The translations under genes and the position numbers were made by a program. A stretch of DNA of 64,000 nt from Candidatus Dojkabacteria bacterium (GTDB lineage Bacteria; Patescibacteriota; Dojkabacteria; SC72). The stretch covers positions 187,685 to 251,684 of the forward strand of contig JACPFP010000003.1 in the NCBI GenBank assembly GCA_016182915.1, given 5' to 3'. The notes below the pieces were generated by a model. It saw only the letters and a program-made list of their open reading frames with translations. It was not told the DNA's origin and did not search any database. This document shows, in pieces, positions 3,401 through 48,620 of the stretch; the first letter of the stretch is position 1; every line of letters starts with the position of its first letter.

Positions 3401-4855
3401 CTATCTATGTGCTTGAGTTCCGTGTTGGTTATAGAATTCAATTGCAACTTTTAGTTCTTCTTTATCTTTTGCGTACTCTTCTAATGGTATATTTGCCAAC
3501 CATGCTTCATATGCCTGGAATACAGCTTTAATACCTGCTCCTGTTCCCATAGGATGTGAATGTACACCCCCTCCCATTGTTACAATGAAATCTATTGATC
3601 CAAATACTTCTATAAAGTCTGGAAGAAGAACAGGATTAAGGCCACCAGAAACGATCGGGGAGGTCTTTTTTATTACCCTCCACATTGTATGCTCCTCTCC
3701 GACTTCCATTGTTAAATTCTTTGTTCTTCTTATTGCAGCAAGCTCTCTTGTTGGCATCCCCCAGAACATATTCTCTCTTGCGATCATCTCCTGCATATCT
3801 GGATCCCTATCTGGAATCTCTGCCCAGATCTGAGTAAAGAATTCTCCTTGTGCATTGAGTCTTAATGCTTGTTTTGCAGCTCCTATGTCTTCCTTAGCAC
3901 TTCCAGACATCTTTCCGACACCTGCTGTACCTGTATGTACACCCGAAGCGCCTGCAAGTCTTGCAAATTTAGTGAGAACTGGAACTGTGTATCCAATTGG
4001 ATTTTCTTCTCTTGTAAAGGCACCATGCCCTGCCCTATGGAAGTGTATAAATACATCGGGATAGTGTCTTCGCATAGTCTGAACTGCGCTCCATCCAGCA
4101 GTCATTCCGTCAACGAGGAAAGAATAGCTTCCCGGTTTCATAACCCTTCGAATATAATCAGCACGCCTAATCATTGTGTCAAAGTCGGCAGCGGAGACAT
4201 TAAAAGAGTGAACTTTCGTTCTTCTAGTTTCCAACTCTGCTTTATCCATAGCCATTCGAACGGAATCTACCATTTTTTCAAAAGGTGCAAACTGCTGGTC
4301 CGCTTGTGGTTCATCATTCTTAACAAAGTCACCACCACCTGACCAAAAATCATAACAAAGTTCTGCATATTCAGTGGAAGTTAATCCAATTTTAGGTTTA
4401 ATAATGGTTCCAAGGATTGGTCTATCATATACACCGAGATACTTTCTCATATCATCAAGTGTATAGCTTGGACCGTCATACTGAACAAGCATTTGTGGTG
4501 GGAACCAGACATCCAGAAGTTTACATTCCTTTAGATTTCCCATTCCAAATATATTACCAGCTATAAAGGTAAGAATGTTCTGGATATTTCCTCCCCTATC
4601 AAACATTAACCATGGGTATGCTATGTAAACAAGATTCTTCTCTTTATCAATATCGTATACAATGGCATCCAATCCCATTGAATAATTTGTAGCCGTAGAG
4701 ACTTTGAGGTTAGAACCAGAGGAAGACTCAGCAGCAAGTTCTGTTGCCGCACTTTCAATGCTCTCATCCCCATATGGGACTACTTTATAAACGGTGAGAA
4801 GGTATTGACCATTGTGGACAGATTGATCTCCAAGTCCTAAATATTGCTCTTGCAT
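3401..4855 (-). CDS. rbcL: ribulose-1,5-bisphosphate carboxylase/oxygenase large subunit, form II/III type
   Basis: 484 aa with GGDFVKNDEPQ active-site block and RuBisCO large-subunit conservation throughout. No small-subunit gene adjacent, consistent with form II/III. Confidence 0.9.
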   Translation of the reverse strand: MQEQYLGLGDQSVHNGQYLLTVYKVVPYGDESIESAATELAAESSSGSNLKVSTATNYSMGLDAIVYDIDKEKNLVYIAYPWLMFDRGGNIQNILTFIAGNIFGMGNLKECKLLDVWFPPQMLVQYDGPSYTLDDMRKYLGVYDRPILGTIIKPKIGLTSTEYAELCYDFWSGGGDFVKNDEPQADQQFAPFEKMVDSVRMAMDKAELETRRTKVHSFNVSAADFDTMIRRADYIRRVMKPGSYSFLVDGMTAGWSAVQTMRRHYPDVFIHFHRAGHGAFTREENPIGYTVPVLTKFARLAGASGVHTGTAGVGKMSGSAKEDIGAAKQALRLNAQGEFFTQIWAEIPDRDPDMQEMIARENMFWGMPTRELAAIRRTKNLTMEVGEEHTMWRVIKKTSPIVSGGLNPVLLPDFIEVFGSIDFIVTMGGGVHSHPMGTGAGIKAVFQAYEAWLANIPLEEYAKDKEELKVAIEFYNQHGTQAHR

Positions 4856-15455: not shown

Positions 15456-15995
15456 TTGTTAACTATTATCGTAACAGATATAATTATACCACTCCCCCAA
15501 TTAGATAATTACTTTTGTATTTATATGTTCCCTTTCAACTTATTTAGAACGAAAGATACGGTTCCAACGGAAGAAAATGAGGAGAAGTTCCGAGCATTTA
15601 TAGCTGAGTTTAAAACTGCAATCTCTGCAGTACGTTCGGAGCTATATCAATACGAAGGAATTTTGAATGATATAGAACACTTCCCAATTCTTAAGGAGAA
15701 ACTAGATAACCCAGATCTCTACAATTATCTATTCACAATGGCTTGGATATTCGAACAGAATCACCAAAGACTACTTGAAGAGAAGCATGTTGAAGATCAG
15801 ATGCTGAAAAGAGGTATAAACATGACGTGTGAGTGGATAGAATATAAAGAGATCGTTAACGGGGCAATGCAGGTATGTTTCTACGATAGTGATGGGCATT
15901 ATGTTTTCGAAACTATAATATATATGGACGAAAGTCGGGCGGTGTTAGAGATTAATCCACCAGATGAAGGTCATGAAGCAATAATTCTTTTATAG
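15456..15995 (+). CDS. hypothetical protein
   Basis: 179-aa ORF, no motif. Confidence 0.3.
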   Translation: MLTIIVTDIIIPLPQLDNYFCIYMFPFNLFRTKDTVPTEENEEKFRAFIAEFKTAISAVRSELYQYEGILNDIEHFPILKEKLDNPDLYNYLFTMAWIFEQNHQRLLEEKHVEDQMLKRGINMTCEWIEYKEIVNGAMQVCFYDSDGHYVFETIIYMDESRAVLEINPPDEGHEAIILL

Positions 15996-17087
15996 ACTCA
16001 ACCTTGGATCCCTATCAACATTCTCGATTTCAGCTAATGTTGTGATAACCTCTCCTCTTTGTACAGAATAGTAGCCTGCAATACATATCATCCCTGCATT
16101 ATCACTTCTATAATCTCCTTTTGGATATAGATATCTCAAACCCCTATACTTAACAATCTTCCCGATACTTCTTAAAATATACTCACTACTGAATACTCCA
16201 CCTCCTACAAATACACTTTTAACTTCAGGGTACTTTTCGATTGCCATTTCTAGTTTAATAACTACAGATCTCTCTATAGAGTTAACAAAAGATCTACATA
16301 AATCGTATACCCACTCCTTCTGTGGTATATCTTTCTCCTTAAACTCCTTAATTTTATAAAGCACTGCAGTCTTCAAACCCGAGTAACTAAAATTAAGATC
16401 CTTGGATCTCTCAAGCGGGATTGGAAGAGGTATAACCCCAACCTTTCCTCTCTTTGCAAACTCCGATACAACAGGTCCACCAGGATACCCGAAATCTAAC
16501 ATCCTACCAACTTTATCAAAGGCCTCACCGGCAGCGTCATCCAATGTTAAACCCAACTTTCTATACTGTCCAAATCCCTCAACGTATATAATTTCGGTAT
16601 GTTTACCGGACATTAGTAGTCCTAAGGCTGGAAAGAGGTCTTCAAGCTCTTCATTTGCCACTAATCCTACCCCTTTACTGTTTAGTGTAAGGGAGGAGAG
16701 AAGATGCCCTTCCATATGGTTGACTGCTATTAAAGGTTTGTCGTATTTCCTACACAACTCTTTAGCAAAAGTAATGCCAACCTCAAGGTCGATAGCAAGT
16801 CCAGGTCCCTTTGTGACAGCGACATAATCAACATCTTGAATTGATACTTTCGCTTTTTTAAGAACCTCTTCATACACACCTTGGATATTCTCTTCATGAG
16901 CCCTTTTTGCAATCATAGGAACTACTCCTCCCCATTCTCTGTGGATCTCAACTTGTGTGGCTCTGATACTAGATAGCACTCTTCTACCAACAGATATGGC
17001 AATGGATGTTTCATCACAACTGGTATCAATTCCCAATATTGTGGGTTCTTTTTCCCTCATAATATTCATGCGATTATTATAGCACAA
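15990..17087 (-). CDS. tsaD: tRNA N6-adenosine threonylcarbamoyltransferase TsaD (Kae1/TsaD family)
   Basis: ILGIDTSCDETSIAI N-terminal motif, HMEGH metal-binding motif, ASKH-fold conservation. Confidence 0.9.
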   Translation of the reverse strand: MCYNNRMNIMREKEPTILGIDTSCDETSIAISVGRRVLSSIRATQVEIHREWGGVVPMIAKRAHEENIQGVYEEVLKKAKVSIQDVDYVAVTKGPGLAIDLEVGITFAKELCRKYDKPLIAVNHMEGHLLSSLTLNSKGVGLVANEELEDLFPALGLLMSGKHTEIIYVEGFGQYRKLGLTLDDAAGEAFDKVGRMLDFGYPGGPVVSEFAKRGKVGVIPLPIPLERSKDLNFSYSGLKTAVLYKIKEFKEKDIPQKEWVYDLCRSFVNSIERSVVIKLEMAIEKYPEVKSVFVGGGVFSSEYILRSIGKIVKYRGLRYLYPKGDYRSDNAGMICIAGYYSVQRGEVITTLAEIENVDRDPRLSL

Positions 17088-17122: not shown

Positions 17123-17470
17123 ATGAATTGTCCCTACTCTAGTTGTCCCTTTAATATAAGGGAAACCTGTACACCACACGACAATAAAGGCTACATATCA
17201 TACAGTGAGGCGGTTTATATTCTTGATCAATGCGAGAACCCAGAGTTACACATAAGAGCTCTATCAATGCTCAATTTTATAGCAATATCTCACTACAGGA
17301 CACTTAGTGATTTGAATGGTCAGATCCCATTTCTTTACCTTGAAAAAGATATTTGTGATTATATGCTCGACGAAAGAGAAGATTACCTCCTCCCCGATTC
17401 TCCCATCTGGCTATCACTGTTTAAAGGGGAAGAGTACCTTTTAGATTTTATTAGTGATGACGTTAGTTAG
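17123..17470 (+). CDS. hypothetical protein
   Basis: 115-aa ORF between the two t6A genes on the opposite strand. Weak evidence. Confidence 0.25.
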   Translation: MNCPYSSCPFNIRETCTPHDNKGYISYSEAVYILDQCENPELHIRALSMLNFIAISHYRTLSDLNGQIPFLYLEKDICDYMLDEREDYLLPDSPIWLSLFKGEEYLLDFISDDVS

Positions 17471-18569
17471 TCTCGTACACAGAGATCTCCCTTTCTTCAA
17501 AGGATAGATATTTGAAGTTAACTTTTACTATCTGTCCTCCATATTCTTTTACAATCTTTTCAAGTTCATTGTAGTACTTATCTGCCCACTCTATAACTAC
17601 AATATCAGATTTTTCCAAGTACTCTTGTAATCCAGATCTTTCAAACTCATTACTATCCTGTATTCTCCATGTGTCCATATGGGCAAGAGTTCTATCTTTT
17701 CCATTATCAGTGTATTTATACTCATTAATTATTGTATAGGTAGGGGAATTAACAACATCCTCAACCTTAAGATAGTTACCAACTCCCTTCGTAAACTGGG
17801 TTTTTCCGGCTCCAAGCTCACCACTGAGAGCAAATACTAGAGGTCCGTTAGTATGTCTCTCTGTAAAGACTCGAGTTATTTCCTCTCCAAAAGCAATAGT
17901 TTCATCAGGAGTTTTAGTTATAAGGGTTGAATATAGCTTAGACTTCTTAATAGCCTGTTCAAACTCAATCTTTCCTTCCCTCAATACCTGGAGACTGTTC
18001 ATTGTAGTATCAAGGACTGTTGATGGAATATTCTTTGGAAGCTCACCTGCATCAATTATCAAGTCAACAGACTCAAAACTCTTCTTGGGGGTTAGTTTAA
18101 GATACTGCTCAATGCTGTATGGAACAGGTTTATATGAGACATTAGCAGAGGTAGCGGTTATTGGCTTTCCAAAAGCTTTAACAATCTCTATAGGGATACT
18201 GTGGTCTGGTATTCTAATACCAATAGTTCCAAATTCGGATTCAACTCCTTTTGCAACTCCTCCCTTGCTTGTAGAGACAACGGTTACTGGCCCCGGCAGA
18301 TAGTTTTTATACAAGTTATCTGCCATTTCATTTATATCTACATACCTACTGGCCATTTCCTTATCGGTAACGGCCATTGAGAAAGGTTTTTGTCCTCTAA
18401 ACCCTTTATACTCGTATAGCATATCAACGGCTTTCTGATTGGTTGCGTCAACGGCAATTCCATAGCATGTTTCAGTTGGATATATAACAGAGCCACCAGC
18501 TTTAAGTACCTTAACAGATTTAATTACTATTTCTTCTAGATTACCCCCTGTTACTTTTATAATCTCCAT
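17463..18569 (-). CDS. fusion of L-threonylcarbamoyladenylate synthase TsaC/YrdC (N-terminal) with t6A ATPase TsaE/YjeE (C-terminal)
   Basis: N-half: YPTETCYGIAVDA, KGFRGQKP, PGPVTVV, IRIPDH, ATSANVS (YrdC/Sua5 motifs). C-half: FALSGELGAGKTQF P-loop, NSPTYTIINEY, HMDTWRI, VVIEWADK (TsaE motifs). Confidence 0.8.
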   Translation of the reverse strand: MEIIKVTGGNLEEIVIKSVKVLKAGGSVIYPTETCYGIAVDATNQKAVDMLYEYKGFRGQKPFSMAVTDKEMASRYVDINEMADNLYKNYLPGPVTVVSTSKGGVAKGVESEFGTIGIRIPDHSIPIEIVKAFGKPITATSANVSYKPVPYSIEQYLKLTPKKSFESVDLIIDAGELPKNIPSTVLDTTMNSLQVLREGKIEFEQAIKKSKLYSTLITKTPDETIAFGEEITRVFTERHTNGPLVFALSGELGAGKTQFTKGVGNYLKVEDVVNSPTYTIINEYKYTDNGKDRTLAHMDTWRIQDSNEFERSGLQEYLEKSDIVVIEWADKYYNELEKIVKEYGGQIVKVNFKYLSFEEREISVYETN

Positions 18570-22717: not shown

Positions 22718-24013
22718 CTAAATTCTCATAGAAACCTTTCTGGGCCAACCAATTTGAATAAATGGGACATCTTTACACAAAGATTTTCTAACACTATTTA
22801 ATAGATCAATCTCTTCTATTGAACTTTCTTCTTTCTCTCCCACAACTAATATGTTTGCTATTCCCTCTTCATGAGCCATCTTAATCCTTTTTCCTACACT
22901 CTCTGCTCTATCATCAATATCAATTCTAATATCGTTATTCTCCTCTATCAGTTTCATACCAAAATCAACAAATTTTTCACTCACAGGAATAATTCTTAGT
23001 TGTATTGGTTGGAAATCAATTGGAATGCCTTTATAGTTATCAACTAACATATATATGTACCTTTCAATACCACCAGGAATAGCAGAATGAATAATTACTG
23101 GATATTTACTATCTCCATATTTAATTCCTAATCTTTTTGCATTTCCAACATCAATTTGAATGCATCCAATTTCTCTAAACTGCTCAAGCTTATCAATAAT
23201 TCCATAATCTATATCTACAATCCAGTATTTCTCTTCCCCACCTAGTTTGATATCAACAAGAACTTCTTTATTATTATTCACAGCAATCTTTATAATTTCT
23301 TGTTTGTATTTCTCCCAATTTTCATCAGAACTAATCTTTGCAATGTTTACACATTTCTTTCCTGCTAGCTCAAAAGCTGAAAGAAGTTGTTTTTCAAATT
23401 TTGGATACCATTCCCATGCCTGATTAACATCTTTGAAGTATGGATGGATATCAGGCATAAAGAATCGCCTGTTTCTGTATAACAACATACATTCGCCACT
23501 TTGTTCAAATCTATAACAATCGGAAAGAGAAAAATGTGCAAATGGAAAATCTTTTTCATTTAATCTCATCTTTGAAGCAAGATTAAATTGAGGGTAACTG
23601 GCATCATAACTCATTACCATATCGTTTGATTGAAATAGCCTATCTCCAAAGAGTCCAGCATATGCTTGTACTACTGGGTGTTTCAAATCAAAGAAGTTAC
23701 TTCCTTTGACTTCATACACTGACATGCCAACTTTATTAACTAGATTCCTTGCATATCCTTCTACCAATCTTCTAATTAGATCAGCTTTATAATTGTAATT
23801 AAGAAACCCTATTTGCGAATTGTCTTCCCAACTAAATCCCAGTTTATTAGCAATGCTAATATAATCAGACATATTTACTGATTCCCACTTTTCGCTAAGA
23901 ACTTCTCTCCTAATACAGATGTTCATTTCATATGAGCACTGTTTTAGTTTTAGATACTTTTCTGCTTTATATATTTTTCCTTCTCTATTTATTACTAAAT
24001 ACTTATTTTTCAT
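22718..24013 (-). CDS. threonyl-tRNA synthetase-like class II catalytic core plus anticodon-binding domain, lacking N-terminal TGS/editing domains
   Basis: DYISIANKLGF (ThrRS RDHRKLGKELDLF-like), motif 2 CYRFEQSGECMLLYRNRRFFMPDIH (ThrRS hRNEpSG...R.RgF.qDDaH), motif 3 GGIERYIYML, C-terminal RIIPV...RAESVGKRIKMA anticodon-binding domain. Only about 50 residues precede the catalytic domain. Confidence 0.7.
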   Translation of the reverse strand: MKNKYLVINREGKIYKAEKYLKLKQCSYEMNICIRREVLSEKWESVNMSDYISIANKLGFSWEDNSQIGFLNYNYKADLIRRLVEGYARNLVNKVGMSVYEVKGSNFFDLKHPVVQAYAGLFGDRLFQSNDMVMSYDASYPQFNLASKMRLNEKDFPFAHFSLSDCYRFEQSGECMLLYRNRRFFMPDIHPYFKDVNQAWEWYPKFEKQLLSAFELAGKKCVNIAKISSDENWEKYKQEIIKIAVNNNKEVLVDIKLGGEEKYWIVDIDYGIIDKLEQFREIGCIQIDVGNAKRLGIKYGDSKYPVIIHSAIPGGIERYIYMLVDNYKGIPIDFQPIQLRIIPVSEKFVDFGMKLIEENNDIRIDIDDRAESVGKRIKMAHEEGIANILVVGEKEESSIEEIDLLNSVRKSLCKDVPFIQIGWPRKVSMRI

Positions 24014-24082
24014 ATTATTAAATTAAACAAATTAAATTTGAATTTCTTCTATTTGGGGTATGAAGTTTTTAGTTTGAAGAAT

Positions 24083-24206
24083 AAAAAAACTCCCGATTGT
24101 GGGAGTTGTATTCGTTAAATAATAAAATATATCCCAACAATCAGACCCTTGTTGTCTGAGTCGTTGTTTTTAAAACTATATTTTTATTATTCATATGATT
24201 TTTCAT
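24083..24206 (-). ncRNA. candidate small transcript: extended -10 promoter (TGGTATAAT) to intrinsic terminator with conserved 3' module
   Basis: Minus-strand TGGTATAAT is the complement of 24214-24222. Downstream inverted repeat attcatatg-aaaaat-catatgaat. Terminator hairpin ctccc-acaatc-gggag plus T7 (24083-24105). The 3' module AACGAAnnnAACTCCC..GGGAGTTTTTT is shared with 48357-48400. Confidence 0.25.
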
Positions 24207-24432
24207 ATGAATAATTATACCAAATATTGATATTTTTATGAACAATATTGTTTTAGTAGATTATTTATCTCTATCAATTCTATATTCAAGCATTTAGTTC
24301 GGGTACACTTCCATATCCTCAGTTTATGTTTATCAACATGAACATAGCTTAGATTTATCAATAAGTATTTTCCTTTTTTAATTGGAACGACTTCCTATGG
24401 GATTTCGTGAAAACAACAAAGCGATTGACATA

Positions 24433-25449
24433 CTATTCCTGAACTTGGAACTGTGGAATCTTTTGCATGACATCAAAAAGTTGTTTCAATGAGACATTGA
24501 AAACTTCTGAGAATCTTCTATAAATAACATTGCCTATTGATACATTAGGTATCTTACCCTGTGTGAAATCATGTAACGATCCATAATATGACCACAAGTA
24601 TGCCTGAATAAGTAAAGACATAAATTGACAATTTACATAGTCATTTTCCTGTAGCCTTGAAGTTCCTGAATTAAGAATTAAATCATAAGCAGGAGTACCA
24701 CTCAACTTTTCTAGTAGATTAAACTCTGCTCTATTATCAAGCAAATGCCCTCCAATCCTATTTGAATACATTTTCCTACCAAGTTCCTTATATGCGGAAT
24801 CTAAATCAATCGCTTCTAGTTTTATACCAATAATTGGTTTAAGTTGCATTGGATCAACGACATCATAAGCGTAATATCCGTCTTCATGATAATACGGAGT
24901 TCTTGCGAGTGCTTGTGCGTGACCACCAATACCTGTTGATACAGCATTTGGGGCAGTATAGTGAATTACCATTGGAATACCTAAATCATCTGCTATCCAG
25001 TTTACAATTTCTGCGGGAATTTCTTCTCCGTCTACTAAGGATTTCAACATTTTTACTCTTGGGTGGTTTTCATCATACACAGTAATATTTAGACCATCAT
25101 TTGTTAACTCCTCATCAAATATAAGATGAACATCCTCTTCCCTATCGATTTCCAAACTTATACTATCCCAAATGTCTAGCCCATCTTTCAAATCTTTAGG
25201 TATTGGGAAGTTTCCTCTGATAAAGTCTTCTCTTGCTGGTGTACCTTCTTCAAACATTTTATTTCTAACAATATCTGCCAGGTATGAAGCAACCTCAACA
25301 TTATGTTGACGCCATGTTTCTAGATCTTCTTGACTTCTTATTTCATCAAGTGACATAGCGAATCGTTTTGTATCCCATTTGGGAAAAATCTGCACTAACT
25401 CTTCATCTTCATGTTGATTTAGTATTTTTACATCTAAAGGTAATGCCAT
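24433..25449 (-). CDS. hypothetical protein
   Basis: 338-aa acidic ORF, no recognisable motif. Confidence 0.4.
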   Translation of the reverse strand: MALPLDVKILNQHEDEELVQIFPKWDTKRFAMSLDEIRSQEDLETWRQHNVEVASYLADIVRNKMFEEGTPAREDFIRGNFPIPKDLKDGLDIWDSISLEIDREEDVHLIFDEELTNDGLNITVYDENHPRVKMLKSLVDGEEIPAEIVNWIADDLGIPMVIHYTAPNAVSTGIGGHAQALARTPYYHEDGYYAYDVVDPMQLKPIIGIKLEAIDLDSAYKELGRKMYSNRIGGHLLDNRAEFNLLEKLSGTPAYDLILNSGTSRLQENDYVNCQFMSLLIQAYLWSYYGSLHDFTQGKIPNVSIGNVIYRRFSEVFNVSLKQLFDVMQKIPQFQVQE

Positions 25450-44280: not shown

Positions 44281-46062
44281 TTATTCTATCACGAAGCTCT
44301 CCGCCAGTATCCTATCTTTAACCAGTGAGTTGAACCTCTTCTTTATCATCTTTGAATTACAGTATTCATTAAGGTAGTACATACCAACCAACCAGTTATA
44401 ACGGACTTTTTCAAAAGCATGATTCAGACTTTTATACTTAAACTTTATATTCTCACCTTTAAGGCTAAACAACGGAATCTTTTTAGACATATCTTTCATG
44501 CCAAATCTAAACTCTCCACTCGAATCGAAGAAGAGAGCCACGGTTCTATATGAAGAGCTATTGAATCCTGATGTTGCTTTAAGACCATAACCAAGATGAA
44601 ATGGAACACCATCAGAGTTAAGAACAGATATCATCCTAATATGACCATAGTATGGCAAGCCATCAATCTCTAGCATAAGATTGTCAACATACTCCTGTAG
44701 TATTGGAGAATTATACTGTGCGAGAAGTTCTGGCGTTATATCTACAGTGGGCAATCTTAGAACCCCTTTGCCTCCTGTAGAACATAATCCCCCTTCTTTC
44801 AAAACAACCTCCTTTCCTAGATCTGTTTCTTGAACCTTCTCATTCTCGCTCACAAATGTAGTCTTTGGATACTCAATTCCTAGATTATGAAGCTCCTCCA
44901 TGCTCTCATATATTTTAAAAAAAGAACCTTTCGCATTAATAGCGTTCGAGAGATACATCACCCTCTCAGACTTATTCCTAAGATCAAAGGTCTTTTGGTT
45001 GCTATGCTCCCATAGATAGGCATACTGATCGAAGGACTTTGTAAGGAGCTCTTTTACAGAATATATACCATCAAGTTCGTCTACTATACTTTTACTTAAC
45101 ATGAACTTGGCTTTATGTTTCCACTTAGGACTGTACTCAATTCGAGGGTACTTTCTATCTTCCAATTCAACAGTATTTAAACCTCCTTTCACTTTGTATT
45201 TTCCATGAATCAAAAGTCTATACAACGTATTACGCTTCTCTTTCCCAAGAAGGGCAGAGAGGGATGCTAATGGAACTACTGCAAAGAGACTACTATTGTG
45301 ATGGAGGTCATTTAAAACTCTCACCTCGACCTTTGGAAAGCTCTTTTCTGTAAGGTACTTGATTGCATATCCAAAATCACCTTCAAACTCTACTTTGAAA
45401 GAGGCATACACTCCTGCTTTAGGGATATCTAGATTTGTCATTGCGTTTTCTATAAAATCACATACCCCACTGAGCAATGGGACCTTAAATCCAGAGATAT
45501 TTGTATTACGACTTACGTTAAGGTATAGCTCCTCAACCAGACTCACTCTATGTTTCGCCCACACCTCCGGAAGAAGAGCAGACCAAAGAGTTGGGATTTC
45601 AAAAACAGTTTTTGCAAACTTCGAATCGTTCTTATACTTAGAAGAGAACTTATCTCTCTTCTCCTTCATCTTCTCTAACGTATTCTTTATAGTTTCAAAT
45701 AGCTGGTCAATGTGAGATGTATCACCAAACATATTAAAATATCCACGATAGCTTTCGATAGCTAACTGTTCACACTCTGGCATTTTAAGAGATGGGAAGG
45801 ATTCCTTGAAAAGCTGGATTAAATTAAACTTAATTCCTTCTGGGAGATCTAAACTCATGGCTTTAACTTCTCTTTCCTTATATAAGGTATTAAGAATATT
45901 TCTAAGCAACCATGGAAACATCCCTGCAGAAAGGACATTAGGGTCAATATGCCCTCCCTCAAGAGTTTTATAATCCATTACATGTTCAAACTCTGCCAGA
46001 TGTATATTTACGCTTTCTAATGATTCCAACTTAGAAAGAACTTTTTTCTCCTTCTCTATCAT
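44281..46062 (-). CDS. hypothetical protein (593 aa)
   Basis: Large ORF with no confident motif. C-terminal third has weak ATP-grasp-like character (GGKGV). Confidence 0.4.
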   Translation of the reverse strand: MIEKEKKVLSKLESLESVNIHLAEFEHVMDYKTLEGGHIDPNVLSAGMFPWLLRNILNTLYKEREVKAMSLDLPEGIKFNLIQLFKESFPSLKMPECEQLAIESYRGYFNMFGDTSHIDQLFETIKNTLEKMKEKRDKFSSKYKNDSKFAKTVFEIPTLWSALLPEVWAKHRVSLVEELYLNVSRNTNISGFKVPLLSGVCDFIENAMTNLDIPKAGVYASFKVEFEGDFGYAIKYLTEKSFPKVEVRVLNDLHHNSSLFAVVPLASLSALLGKEKRNTLYRLLIHGKYKVKGGLNTVELEDRKYPRIEYSPKWKHKAKFMLSKSIVDELDGIYSVKELLTKSFDQYAYLWEHSNQKTFDLRNKSERVMYLSNAINAKGSFFKIYESMEELHNLGIEYPKTTFVSENEKVQETDLGKEVVLKEGGLCSTGGKGVLRLPTVDITPELLAQYNSPILQEYVDNLMLEIDGLPYYGHIRMISVLNSDGVPFHLGYGLKATSGFNSSSYRTVALFFDSSGEFRFGMKDMSKKIPLFSLKGENIKFKYKSLNHAFEKVRYNWLVGMYYLNEYCNSKMIKKRFNSLVKDRILAESFVIE

Positions 46063-46889
46063 TTTAGTTTATAAAATAATTTAGCATTCTTATAGAAAAC
46101 ATTATCTTTAATCTCAGACTGTAAACAGTTATCTAGAATTCTGATAGTGTCATCATAGCTACCTGAGAGTTTGCATACTGGCCAATCAGATCCCCAGACA
46201 ATCCTATCCGGTCCAAAGTACTCCAGTACTGTTTCAAGGTATGGCCTGAACATTTCGATATTCCATGAATTCCATTTGGCTTCTGTAAGAAGACCGGATA
46301 GCTTGCAGTATAGATTGGGAAATTTTGAGAGTTCAATAATCCCCCTTCTCCACTCTTCATCAAAAGCTTTCCCATCTCTAATTCTAGGTTTGGCACAGTG
46401 GTCTAACATAAGCCTCCCTTCACCAACAGACTTCAAAAATTCCAATGCTTTGGAAATCTGAGTCGGGTATATAAGGATTTCATATATATAATCCTTTTTA
46501 AGAATCTTTTTAACACCATCAACAAACTCACTATCTAACATTAGGTTACTATCAGGTTCGGTCTGTAGAATATGTCTAAACCCTTTTAAGAGAGGGGCAT
46601 CACGAAACTTTTCTAGATCAGTTTCTAAAATTTTAGATTTCAGATCTATCCAACCAATTACTCCAACAACATCACGACTCACTCGAGCAGCTTCAAGAAG
46701 AAAGTCCGTTTCCTGAGTAGTCTGCCTCGCTTGTACAAGAATCTTCGAGGTCACTTTCCCAACCTCACTCTCGCTGTTTAAGGCTCCAACCAGATGATCT
46801 TTCCTCAATGTTTCCATATTCTCATCAATCCATCCATACTCCTCTTCAGTATACTTCCAGATGTGTACGTGAGTATCTATATATTCCAT
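46059..46889 (-). CDS. amidohydrolase-2 family metal-dependent hydrolase (TIM barrel)
   Basis: YIDTHVHIW N-terminal metal-binding motif, HC and D near the C-terminus (WGSDWP). Confidence 0.7.
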   Translation of the reverse strand: MEYIDTHVHIWKYTEEEYGWIDENMETLRKDHLVGALNSESEVGKVTSKILVQARQTTQETDFLLEAARVSRDVVGVIGWIDLKSKILETDLEKFRDAPLLKGFRHILQTEPDSNLMLDSEFVDGVKKILKKDYIYEILIYPTQISKALEFLKSVGEGRLMLDHCAKPRIRDGKAFDEEWRRGIIELSKFPNLYCKLSGLLTEAKWNSWNIEMFRPYLETVLEYFGPDRIVWGSDWPVCKLSGSYDDTIRILDNCLQSEIKDNVFYKNAKLFYKLK

Positions 46890-47578
46890 TATTTATATCT
46901 CTTTAAATATTTTGATCCTAATTCATTCCAAAACATATATCGAAAGGTCTTTATGAAGTTCACAAGAGGTTGTCCCAGAAGCTTTCCACTTTCAGTTAAC
47001 ATTGTCTCATAGCTAGAAATCTGGAAGGTTAGTTGATCCAGAAGGGAGTGGGTGTTTGAAACCCTATCCCCCTGGTTCTCCTCATCATATGTTCCATGCT
47101 TTTTAAGAGTGAGAAGGTCAAGAGACAAATTAAGTTGACCTGCTTCAAGTGAGGATAGACTTCTCCATATCCCAACGGCTCCAAGAAGGTCAAGAGTGTC
47201 TGCATCTGTTACCACTTTTAACATTTTTGTTAATTTCGGTGCCCTGAACTTATTGTTGTGCCATTTAACTACATAAACGATTGCCTCAATTCTTTTCTCA
47301 GGGAGATCAGTTTTAGACCTTAGGAACTTTGAAACCATTCTCGAGCCAACCTCCCCATGTTCAGCTCTAGTACAAAGTCCTAAAGCTACATCGTGTAACA
47401 TAGCGGCAATTTCATAATCAACGGTTCTTTTAATCCCCTCCCGTTTACAGATCTCTTTAGTCCACTCAAGTGTTCGAAGGGCATGTGAGTAGTCATGCCC
47501 AGATTCACGACCCATATTCTTTCTACAAAATCTCTCTATTTTTCTTTTTAGTTCGTTATTCATATTCTTTTGAATCAT
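46889..47578 (-). CDS. HD-domain phosphohydrolase
   Basis: H...HD motif (SHALRTLEW... AAMLHDVALG). Confidence 0.65.
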   Translation of the reverse strand: MIQKNMNNELKRKIERFCRKNMGRESGHDYSHALRTLEWTKEICKREGIKRTVDYEIAAMLHDVALGLCTRAEHGEVGSRMVSKFLRSKTDLPEKRIEAIVYVVKWHNNKFRAPKLTKMLKVVTDADTLDLLGAVGIWRSLSSLEAGQLNLSLDLLTLKKHGTYDEENQGDRVSNTHSLLDQLTFQISSYETMLTESGKLLGQPLVNFIKTFRYMFWNELGSKYLKRYK

Positions 47579-48338
47579 CTAAATGTGTATATCCACCATC
47601 CACAAAGACCCATTGTCCTGTGAAGTGGGAACTTTTATCCGAAAGCAGAAATAATGCGTAGTTAGCAATCTCTTCAGGTTGGGTTAATCTATGTCCAAGA
47701 TTTATCTTCTGCACTATGTGAGAAAGCCGTACACTCGCCGATTTATCCTGAGATATCCATTTCTGATATTGAGGAGTCATAACCTCAGCCGGAATGATAC
47801 AGTTAACATCAACGTTATATGGAGCAAGCTCTACAGCCCACTCTCTTGTCAGGGAATTGATGGCTCCTTTTGCAGCCGCATACCCTGAAGTTCCTCCTTG
47901 GCCTGTGAGAGAAACCTTCGAAGATATGTTAACTATTGAACCTTCCTCCCTTTTTATTTTCTCAATAAAGCCCTTTGTCATTTGAAAGTAGTGGGTGAGA
48001 TTCTTACAGAGTGAAGACTCGAACTGTGAAATGTCTGCATCTAACCCAACTCCATCATTTACCCCAGCATTATTAACCAAACCATAGATTTCTGGATACA
48101 GATTACATATATCCTCAATTACACTTTCTGTCATCAGATGGTCTGCCAAATCACACTTGAATACTCCTGGAGAGTTTATACCATTTAGTTCTTTTGCAAT
48201 TTTCTTTGCTTTCTTATAGTCTTTATCTACAATTACTGGTAGAGCACCCTCAGCATACAATCCGCGAACAATCGCTTCCCCAATTCCATTTGCCCCTCCT
48301 GTCACTACAATTACTTTATTTTTTATTCCTAATTTCAT
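47556..48338 (-). CDS. SDR family oxidoreductase
   Basis: VTGGANGIGEAI cofactor motif, NNAG, and YAAAK catalytic YxxxK. Confidence 0.85.
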   Translation of the reverse strand: MKLGIKNKVIVVTGGANGIGEAIVRGLYAEGALPVIVDKDYKKAKKIAKELNGINSPGVFKCDLADHLMTESVIEDICNLYPEIYGLVNNAGVNDGVGLDADISQFESSLCKNLTHYFQMTKGFIEKIKREEGSIVNISSKVSLTGQGGTSGYAAAKGAINSLTREWAVELAPYNVDVNCIIPAEVMTPQYQKWISQDKSASVRLSHIVQKINLGHRLTQPEEIANYALFLLSDKSSHFTGQWVFVDGGYTHLDDSKEYE

Positions 48339-48356: not shown

Positions 48357-48505
48357 AAAAAACTCCCATTTCTGGGAGTTATAATTTTCGTTTAATTTGG
48401 TTTGGTTTAAATGAATCTTATATCTCCCAATGGTATGAACCTAAAAATAAAGGCCCAAAGGATGCAAGGAAGATATGTATGTTTAATAAACTGATTCATT
48501 GTTTT
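48357..48505 (-). other. orphan transcription unit: sigma70-like promoter (TTGACA-16-TATAAA), 30-aa hydrophobic sORF (48407..48499), terminator with conserved 3' module
   Basis: Minus-strand TTGACA is the complement of 48533-48538 and TATAAA the complement of 48511-48516. ATG at 48499 reads MNQFIKHTYLPCILWAFIFRFIPLGDIRFI. Terminator hairpin ctccca-tttc-tgggag plus T6 at 48357-48378. The AACGAA...AACTCCC..GGGAGTTTTTT module is shared with 24083-24125. Confidence 0.25.
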
Positions 48506-48620
48506 TGCATTTTATATTAGCTACCTAATACTGTCAATAGTTATCTTGTATTAATAGAGCTAATTCACGTATTTGAATAGGTAGTCTTTCAAATCTCCTT
48601 CATCATGATATTATTACCTT

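Follow-up and report, generated by a model that had tools for sequence, protein, structure and literature searches.

We analysed a 64,000-nucleotide stretch of the genome of Candidatus Dojkabacteria bacterium (contig JACPFP010000003.1, positions 187,685 to 251,684; hereafter the window), in which two short units on the minus strand, unit 1 (24222-24083) and unit 2 (48537-48357), each run from a promoter to an intrinsic terminator. Our results indicate that unit 1 is very probably a ribosome-mediated attenuator in front of thrS, the gene for threonine-tRNA ligase (ThrRS), that unit 2 is most likely an attenuator as well, and that the hairpin shared by the two is generic. This kind of regulation is itself known; it is new for thrS and for the Patescibacteria lineage, and among the top-ranked papers of the literature searched none treats leader peptides or attenuation in Patescibacteria, Saccharibacteria or Dojkabacteria. 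A preliminary description of this DNA had presented the units as orphan, free-standing small-RNA (sRNA) or small-protein genes. The strings it quoted for both units are indeed present where it placed them when the minus strand is read, promoter scans and terminator searches support both as real promoter-to-terminator units, and neither terminator serves an upstream gene. The units are not orphans, though. The terminator of unit 1 ends 69 nucleotides before the ATG of the same-strand gene thrS (22718-24013), and that of unit 2 ends 18 nucleotides before the ATG of a same-strand SDR gene (47556-48338). Unit 1 is thus the 5′ leader of thrS and not an orphan sRNA gene, and unit 2 is the 5′ leader of an SDR/HD/amidohydrolase operon.

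The elements of unit 1 and the gene that follows it are arranged as listed here.

24214-24242, minus strand: promoter, with a -35-like TTCATA (24242-24237), a 17-nucleotide spacer and an extended -10 element TGGTATAAT (24222-24214); 10/12 in the promoter scan, with a TG motif.
24141-24206, minus strand: leader open reading frame (ORF) of 21 codons, MKNHMNNKNIVLKTTTQTTRV plus the stop TGA, with its ATG 7 nucleotides past the -10 hexamer.
24150-24167, minus strand: regulatory threonine (Thr) codons, ACA ACG ACT (24167-24159), then CAG, then ACA ACA (24155-24150).
24154-24166, minus strand: region 1, CAACGACTCAGAC, which holds the Thr codons; its partner in the minimum-energy fold of the free RNA is GTCTGATTGTTG (24146-24135).
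24132-24142, minus strand: region 2, GATTGTTGGGA, beginning within the stop codon; it forms the antiterminator's 5′ strand and pairs with 24104-24095.
24095-24104, minus strand: region 3, TCCCACAATC, the 5′ arm and loop of the terminator and the 3′ strand of the antiterminator.
24083-24107, minus strand: intrinsic terminator AACTCCC/ACAATC/GGGAGTT (24107-24088, 7-base-pair stem) with a T7 run ending at 24083.
22718-24013, minus strand: thrS, encoding a threonine-tRNA ligase of 431 amino acids with a catalytic core and an anticodon-binding domain (Pfam tRNA-synt_2b, HGTP_anticodon).

The ORF of unit 1, which the preliminary description had overlooked while noting correctly the small ORF in unit 2, carries five Thr codons among six consecutive ones (codons 14-19, T T T Q T T). 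As its ATG follows the -10 hexamer so closely, the ORF is probably leaderless. In the fold of the free RNA (-38.4 kcal/mol, z = -7.7) the Thr-codon segment pairs with region 2, and the sequence ACGAA stands just 5′ of the AACTCCC hairpin. Unit 1 also contains an inverted repeat, which had been reported with arms of 9 base pairs; the repeat is present, and its perfect arms extend to 13 nucleotides (ATTATTCATATGA / TCATATGAATAAT, 24215-24186, minus strand). It extends over the -10 box and the predicted transcription start into the leader ORF, of which it takes in the first seven codons, and it is peculiar to this genome; relatives retain at most a part of it (locus L008). The repeat may serve as an operator, or it may simply result from the MKNHMNN codons.

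The same layout accompanies thrS in relatives. We compared 13 distinct thrS loci (the window, L002, L005, L008, L009, L011, L012, L013, L014, L144, L146, L147 and L149); a metagenome scan with a ThrRS alignment yielded only six loci. The 13 loci include records named Dojkabacteria, Saccharibacteria and “Patescibacteria group”, and their ThrRS identity to the window protein runs from 84% down to 49%. Promoter, Thr-rich short ORF, region 2 and terminator hairpin are found in all 13 loci. A TGnTATAAT promoter precedes 12 of the 13 ORFs, and the -10 hexamer lies 6-8 nucleotides from the ATG in 11 of them. The leader ORFs have 10-21 codons and hold, in every locus, 3-5 Thr codons within a six-codon window; examples of the peptides in relatives are MKNHIINKNIVLNTTTPTTRV, MKNIIISKNISINSTTPTTRV, MNFELINNNYIATTTATTLRA, MVKKIIKFITITTTTVFAVG, MYKYVFGQNLVSSTTTTT, MIYSVISNQSTTTTVLS, MIYRISNNLQTTTTTLLS and MHKSTRTLTV. 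The Thr codons vary synonymously (ACA, ACG, ACT, ACC). In the close group the variable sites of the ORF number 2, 5 and 9 at codon positions 1, 2 and 3, and this concentration at third positions is what is expected of a translated frame. Region 2 appears as GT(T/C)GGG at or beside the stop codon in all 13 leaders, followed by the hairpin CTCCC..GGGAG (CCTCC..GGAGG in L147) and a T run that is interrupted in some distant leaders.

Covariation was assessed in an alignment of the 13 leaders from region 2 through the terminator (A2). In the antiterminator helix (columns 5-15 with 52-62) 91.9% of cells are paired, and 5 of the 11 pairs show changes on both sides, in 11 cells. In 500 column shuffles neither the pairing nor the covariation score was reached, but the 13 leaders are related, so that the shuffle statistics overstate independence, which tells against the strength of this result. 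Sliding the antiterminator partner by 1-3 columns retains this relatedness, yet the slid controls reach only 23-52% pairing. The terminator-loop variants (ACAATC, AATAATC, AGCAATT, GGCAATT, AACAATT, GACAG, GATAGC and others) remain complementary to region 2. The informative changes sit in this loop, which would be free to vary without a second partner. By comparison, the terminator helix is 90% paired and nearly invariant across the 13 leaders, which fits a strand obliged to match two partners.

The two alternative structures were examined by constrained folding of the leaders. The free RNA forms the 1:2 pairing together with the terminator in 13/13 leaders, and the terminator also forms in all 13 when a ribosome is placed at the stop codon. 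With the ribosome on the second Thr codon, the antiterminator is the minimum-energy fold in nine of the 13, even with the complete terminator competing. We further scanned the ribosome along the ORF, folding only the RNA 3′ of it; this procedure replaced a model that allowed pairs across the ribosome, the outcome of which was blurred for unit 1. In the window leader, only A-site positions on Thr14-Gln17 lower the terminator probability, from about 1.0 to 0.06-0.5. A stall-sensitive window is seen in 11 of the 13 leaders; in 10 of these it spans the Thr run or extends to it, in L008 only partly.

Judging from sequence and folding models, unit 1 would be a classical leader-peptide attenuator by which thrS transcription is linked to the availability of charged tRNA(Thr). 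Transcription would start at or beside the AUG of the 21-codon Thr-rich ORF. In RNA without a ribosome, region 1 would pair with region 2, the terminator (regions 3 and 4) would form and transcription would stop at the U7 tract. When Thr-tRNA(Thr) is plentiful, the ribosome would reach the stop codon and mask region 2, since the two overlap, and the terminator would again form. When charged tRNA(Thr) is scarce, the ribosome is expected to stall on the Thr codons, so that region 1 is occupied and region 2 is left free. Region 2 would then pair with region 3, that is the 5′ arm and loop of the terminator, which would block termination and allow read-through into thrS. The resulting increase in ThrRS would restore charging.

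Besides the relatedness of the leaders, several points weigh against the attenuator reading of unit 1. The complementarity between regions 2 and 3 is individually modest in single sequences (p 0.002-0.34). In L149 and L014 a GC-rich terminator stays dominant in equilibrium folding, and a kinetic argument is needed there. In L013 a TGCTATAAT box lies 32 nucleotides from the Thr ORF, so this copy is not leaderless. Finally, the model presumes that transcription and translation are coupled in these bacteria.

Unit 2 is built on a similar plan, with three mutually exclusive hairpins and a near-leaderless ORF, and precedes the following operon.

48509-48537, minus strand: promoter, TTGACA (48537-48532), a 17-nucleotide spacer and TAAAAT (48514-48509); 11/12 in the promoter scan.
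48407-48499, minus strand: ORF of 30 codons, MNQFIKHTYLPCILWAFIFRFIPLGDIRFI plus stop, with its ATG 9 nucleotides after the -10 hexamer.
48468-48476, minus strand: region 1, ATATCTTCC.
48414-48430, minus strand: region 2, TTGGGAGATATAAGATT (as GGGAGATAT in the 1:2 fold), inside the last codons of the ORF.
48372-48388, minus strand: region 3, AAAATTATAACTCCCAG.
48360-48381, minus strand: terminator, TAACTCCCA-GAAA-TGGGAGTT(T), with the core AACTCCC-AGAAAT-GGGAGTT and a T6 run ending at 48357.
44281-48338, minus strand: operon 3′ of unit 2, with the genes for SDR, an HD hydrolase, Amidohydro_2 (fuconolactonase-like, below cut-off) and a 593-amino-acid protein of unassigned family.

Regions 1 and 2 of unit 2 pair in the minimum-energy fold (z = -4.5), and region 2 is complementary to the 17 nucleotides of region 3, which include the terminator 5′ arm; the predicted 2:3 duplex has -16.3 kcal/mol (shuffle p about 0.01). 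In the ribosome scan, an A site on codons 8-20 brings the terminator probability under 0.15, whereas at other positions it stays at about 1. The ORF, the terminator and a mutually exclusive antiterminator are therefore all present, as read from a single sequence. The stall-sensitive codons 8-20 encode TYLPCILWAFIFR, in which F, I and L recur. On balance we lean towards unit 2 being an attenuator; its signal may be translation stress in general, or a ligand that acts on the nascent peptide.

The attenuator reading of unit 2 is opposed by the fact that the unit is known from one sequence only, by a chance of about 8%, by our estimate, that a 30-codon ORF is open at this composition, and by an ORF that shows no telling run of a cognate amino acid and no link to the sugar-dehydrogenase-like operon. 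In addition, the SDR orthologues (60-63% identity) in L015-L023, L151 and L152 are internal to a longer operon, with no such leader before them. Some of these points would equally suit a free-standing gene for a small hydrophobic peptide, for example a type I toxin-like or a membrane peptide, with a terminator of its own, the operon being expressed by leaky read-through or from another promoter. Such a gene would be in keeping with the strong promoter (11/12), with the hydrophobic character of the 30-amino-acid peptide and its want of a run pointing to a sensed residue, with the pairing of the start-codon region and the stop-codon region in the minimum-energy fold, as in some toxin mRNAs, and with the failure of unit 2 to be conserved before the SDR orthologues. 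We nevertheless consider it rather unlikely. Only 18 nucleotides separate the T run from the SDR start, and a promoter scan of this interval gave no match; region 2 is strongly complementary to the terminator 5′ arm and yields a clean stall-dependent switch; the hydrophobic stretch is short and broken by Arg; and the peptide is without homologues.

The last point bears on the conservation of the 30-amino-acid ORF, one of the checks named in the preliminary description: no genuine relative was found among 1.84 billion representative proteins. The sole match, P0241, was rejected. It is a protein of 1272 amino acids made up of about 20 copies of a 64-residue unit (..FIETSYLPCIILWSAKF..) and evidently the translation of a tandem repeat in DNA. 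With short queries, scores added up over repeats can give a false impression of significance.

In relatives, the genes for SDR, HD, Amidohydro_2 and a 577-amino-acid protein are preceded, within one operon, by genes for a protein of 334-412 amino acids, a DUF6182 protein and a thymidylate-kinase-like protein; L015-L017 have in addition a 66-amino-acid ORF and a beta-lactamase-family gene inserted in the operon. The window has unit 2 where relatives have these upstream genes. We considered unit 2 as a remnant of them and discarded the idea, since tblastn of the kinase-like, DUF6182 and 412-amino-acid proteins against the window found none. Unit 2 looks lineage-specific. The SDR protein is identical to MBI2357022.1 (Candidatus Dojkabacteria bacterium) and exceeds the cut-off of the NCBIfam L-fucose dehydrogenase model (344 bits against 300); because the gene context differs in relatives, the “L-fucose” naming of the operon is uncertain. 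In the Dojkabacteria locus L016 (CP129470.1, about 380-650), a TTGACA-17-TACAAT promoter is followed by a roughly 50-codon ORF whose product is similar to the N-terminal part of a longer L018 protein, by a strong terminator CCCCCGAAAGGGGGT6 and by the first operon gene. This ORF may be another leader or a split gene.

We next turn to what the two units have in common. The preliminary description had taken them for independent sRNA or small-protein genes of one family, united by the 3′ stem-loop AACGAA..AACTCCC..GGGAGT6. The window holds exactly two matches to the pattern AACTCCC-N3-8-GGGAGTTTTT, a pattern chosen post hoc, and 100 shuffles gave 0.00. Clean intergenic hairpins with a U tract number only about three in the 64 kb (10589-10574 after tRNA-Leu, 24107-24083 and 48381-48357); two of the three lie in 5′ leaders and not at gene ends. 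Several resemblances speak for a family. The 7-base-pair stem is identical and ACGAA lies a few nucleotides upstream of it in both units, and terminated leader transcripts would be short RNAs. Outside the hairpin the units share TTGGGA.ATAT..ATT.ATTTAA (local alignment p about 0.0125), and a covariance model of the thrS platform (R1) finds in unit 2 its second-best match in the window (24.7 bits, E = 0.0014).

Comparison with other genomes speaks against a family. Among relatives the CTCCC/GGGAG stem of the supposed 3′ module is kept in the thrS leaders, whereas ACGAA is absent from seven of the eight closest (which have ACAAA, ACTAG, ACTAA, AATAA or TTAAA instead) and is seen again only in L013, a distant leader. 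When 185,579 species genomes were scanned for the bare hairpin as AACTCCC-N4-8-GGGAGTTTTTT, at least 120 stretches matched. They belong to unrelated taxa such as Erwinia, Flavobacterium and Clostridia, to many candidate-phyla-radiation genomes and to others; among the matches listed none stands beside a thrS-type gene, and the stretches inspected were ordinary 3′ terminators after genes or tRNAs. Model R1 gave 32 matches of 24.8-39.3 bits, all at or above the score of unit 2, on 100 unrelated control loci with the hairpin, and 21.8 bits on the reverse strand of unit 1’s own hairpin. It cannot tell unit 2 from generic terminators, and we rejected a paralogous relation between unit 2 and the thrS platform. 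The TTGGGA likeness is likewise forced, because region 2 must complement the shared stem: in each unit the 5′ arm of the hairpin has to match both region 2 and region 4. With a same-strand gene abutting each unit and no real homologue of the unit 2 peptide, an sRNA family is very improbable. We conclude that the shared hairpin AACTCCC..GGGAGT6 is generic terminator sequence and not a family marker, and that the likeness of the two expression platforms lends no support to common descent beyond that which any generic terminator would provide. The observation behind the preliminary description is confirmed, and its interpretation as an orphan sRNA family is supported only in part.

The leaders might also be switches made of RNA alone, such as a riboswitch, a T-box-like tRNA sensor or a ThrRS-binding operator like that of E. 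coli, with the ORFs incidental. There is precedent, as thrS is under T-boxes in Firmicutes and under a ThrRS-binding operator in E. coli (PMC2965389), and a conserved, unexplained segment lies between the terminator and thrS:

24014-24082, minus strand: terminator-to-thrS segment, TTCTTC .. CTTCATACCC .. AGAAG .. TTCAAT, conserved in sequence.

This segment of 60-70 nucleotides is conserved in the window, L002, L005, L008, L009, L011, L012 and L144. RNAalifold found no consensus structure in it. There is a weak TTCTTC/GAAGAA helix, with one U-A to C-G change in L144. The segment could be a second layer of control, for example by ThrRS binding or by masking of the start codon (UUCAU:AUGAA), and autoregulation by ThrRS could in this way exist in addition to attenuation. 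As a replacement for attenuation, an RNA-only switch has very little probability. At the Rfam gathering threshold, the window and the 12 related loci gave tRNAs only, with no T-box and no leader family. At E ≤ 10, no T-box was found in either unit, and the best match was Phe_leader with 19.5-27.3 bits against a threshold of 55, derived from the terminator alone. Furthermore, the leader 5′ of the terminator is AU-rich and only about 100 nucleotides long, and at 49% protein identity it is the Thr run and the frame, with its third-position variation, that are kept, with no aptamer-like fold. 

The remaining suggestion, that the unit 1 terminator merely ends the mRNA of the upstream gene 24433-25449 after a long 3′ untranslated region, could appeal to the gene’s lying on the same strand with no terminator of its own in the 210 nucleotides before the unit 1 promoter, but it deserves next to no credence, because the neighbour 5′ of the leader varies among loci or is divergent while the leader always stays with thrS, so that the terminator belongs to thrS, and because a conserved extended -10 promoter stands between that gene and the terminator.

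The ThrRS of the window matches NCBIfam PRK03991 over profile positions 153-563 of 613 (E = 1e-90, with a bit score under the curated cut-off) and is without the N-terminal editing region; homologues of 430-450 amino acids are common across Patescibacteria. We found no other leaderless ORFs and no other synthetase genes in the 64-kb window. Unrelated to the units, the window encodes on the minus strand a RuBisCO large-subunit homologue (3401-4855) and two proteins of t6A synthesis, TsaD (15990-17087) and a fused Sua5/YrdC-TsaE (17463-18569).

Two further kinds of leader were noticed elsewhere. On the minus strand of L076 (CAZZDG010000021.1, about 4560-4830), one of the control loci, TGATATAAT is followed after 10 nucleotides by an ORF MLQNTILLATHHHSHI (with HHHSH). 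Directly after its stop comes GGGAGTTGAT, complementary to the terminator 5′ arm, then AACTCCCAATTATTGGGAGT7 and a hisS-like ORF of 415 amino acids. The record is titled “uncultured Pseudomonadales”, but GC content at this locus is 37%, and HisRS does not have an N-terminus of the enterobacterial type. This His leader is a hint that in such genomes synthetase genes are more generally preceded by cognate leader peptides. In Flavobacterium L047 (minus strand, 2268) and L094 (minus strand, 5670), Val/Ile-rich leader ORFs (MKNSIVLVSVVNVIVVSTNA and MKNLIIIVSVIIVIVVSTIA) are followed by AACTCCC..GGGAGT6 and an ilvD-like gene; these are classical branched-chain attenuators that have the same terminator sequence by chance.

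The thrS leaders at 13/13 loci and the HHHSH leader before a hisS-like gene in L076 allow a broader, speculative reading, to which we give a low probability: cognate leaderless attenuators might be the general means by which Patescibacteria control aminoacyl-tRNA synthetases, in the role that T-boxes have in Firmicutes, and with unit 2 one lineage of Dojkabacteria might have put the same platform to use before a sugar-oxidation operon. If so, transcription and translation would be tightly coupled in ultra-small cells, and unit 2 would sense general ribosome stalling, or a metabolite through its nascent peptide.

Candidate-phyla-radiation bacteria have very few transcription factors, and few of them are cultivated. 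To our knowledge, almost nothing is known of their gene regulation. A deeply conserved thrS attenuator would offer a concrete and testable regulatory circuit for this group. It would imply that ribosomes follow closely behind RNA polymerase and that leaderless initiation is used in regulation, and it would join the E. coli operator and the Firmicute T-box as a third way of controlling thrS that has arisen in evolution. The signature TGnTATAAT, 6-8 nucleotides, an ATG ORF with a Thr run, GT(T/C)GGG, a CTCCC..GGGAG hairpin and a T run could serve annotation and would prevent such leaders from being called “orphan” sRNAs or hypothetical small proteins.

Leader-peptide attenuators are known for E. 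coli pheST (pheM), Streptomyces trpS and leuS, and Bacillus hisS paralogues (PMC1262725; PMC2965389). The proposed thrS attenuator resembles them in having a synthetase gene, an ORF with cognate codons, a terminator/antiterminator pair and a homeostatic logic. It differs in the amino acid and gene (Thr and thrS), in its occurrence in Patescibacteria and in an ORF that lacks a Shine-Dalgarno sequence and begins where transcription is predicted to start. Sequence similarity is also absent, the Phe_leader scores (19.5-27 bits against 55) being terminator-derived. With the enterobacterial thrL leader (Rfam Thr_leader) it has in common a Thr(/Ile)-rich peptide, the sensing of charged tRNA(Thr) by stalling and a three-hairpin switch. 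However, thrL controls the biosynthetic thrABC genes, while unit 1 would control the synthetase; in unit 1 Thr only is enriched, and there is no Rfam match.

The mycobacterial leaderless polycysteine upstream ORFs are attenuators as well (bioRxiv 10.1101/834739). Like them, unit 1 has a leaderless ORF at the predicted 5′ end of the transcript with a run of cognate codons that would tune downstream genes; unlike them, it concerns another amino acid and phylum, and the thrS leaders have a canonical intrinsic terminator and a covarying antiterminator. With the E. coli thrS operator and the Firmicute T-box, unit 1 shares the regulated gene, thrS, and the purpose of matching the ThrRS level to tRNA(Thr) charging. 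In contrast to both, control would be exerted at transcription termination and read by a translating ribosome, with no T-box match and no tRNA-like operator identified.

For unit 2 the closest parallels are of another kind. TnaC and SpeFL are nascent peptides that sense a ligand. Leaders that sense stalling without amino-acid specificity are known from ermC-type genes, vmlR and mef/mel (PMC9226507, PMC4335068). As in the latter, a stall within the predicted window of unit 2 would flip the terminator and antiterminator before an operon unrelated to amino acids. It departs from them in that its peptide has no known arrest motif and in that the genes downstream form a sugar-dehydrogenase-like operon and are not resistance genes.

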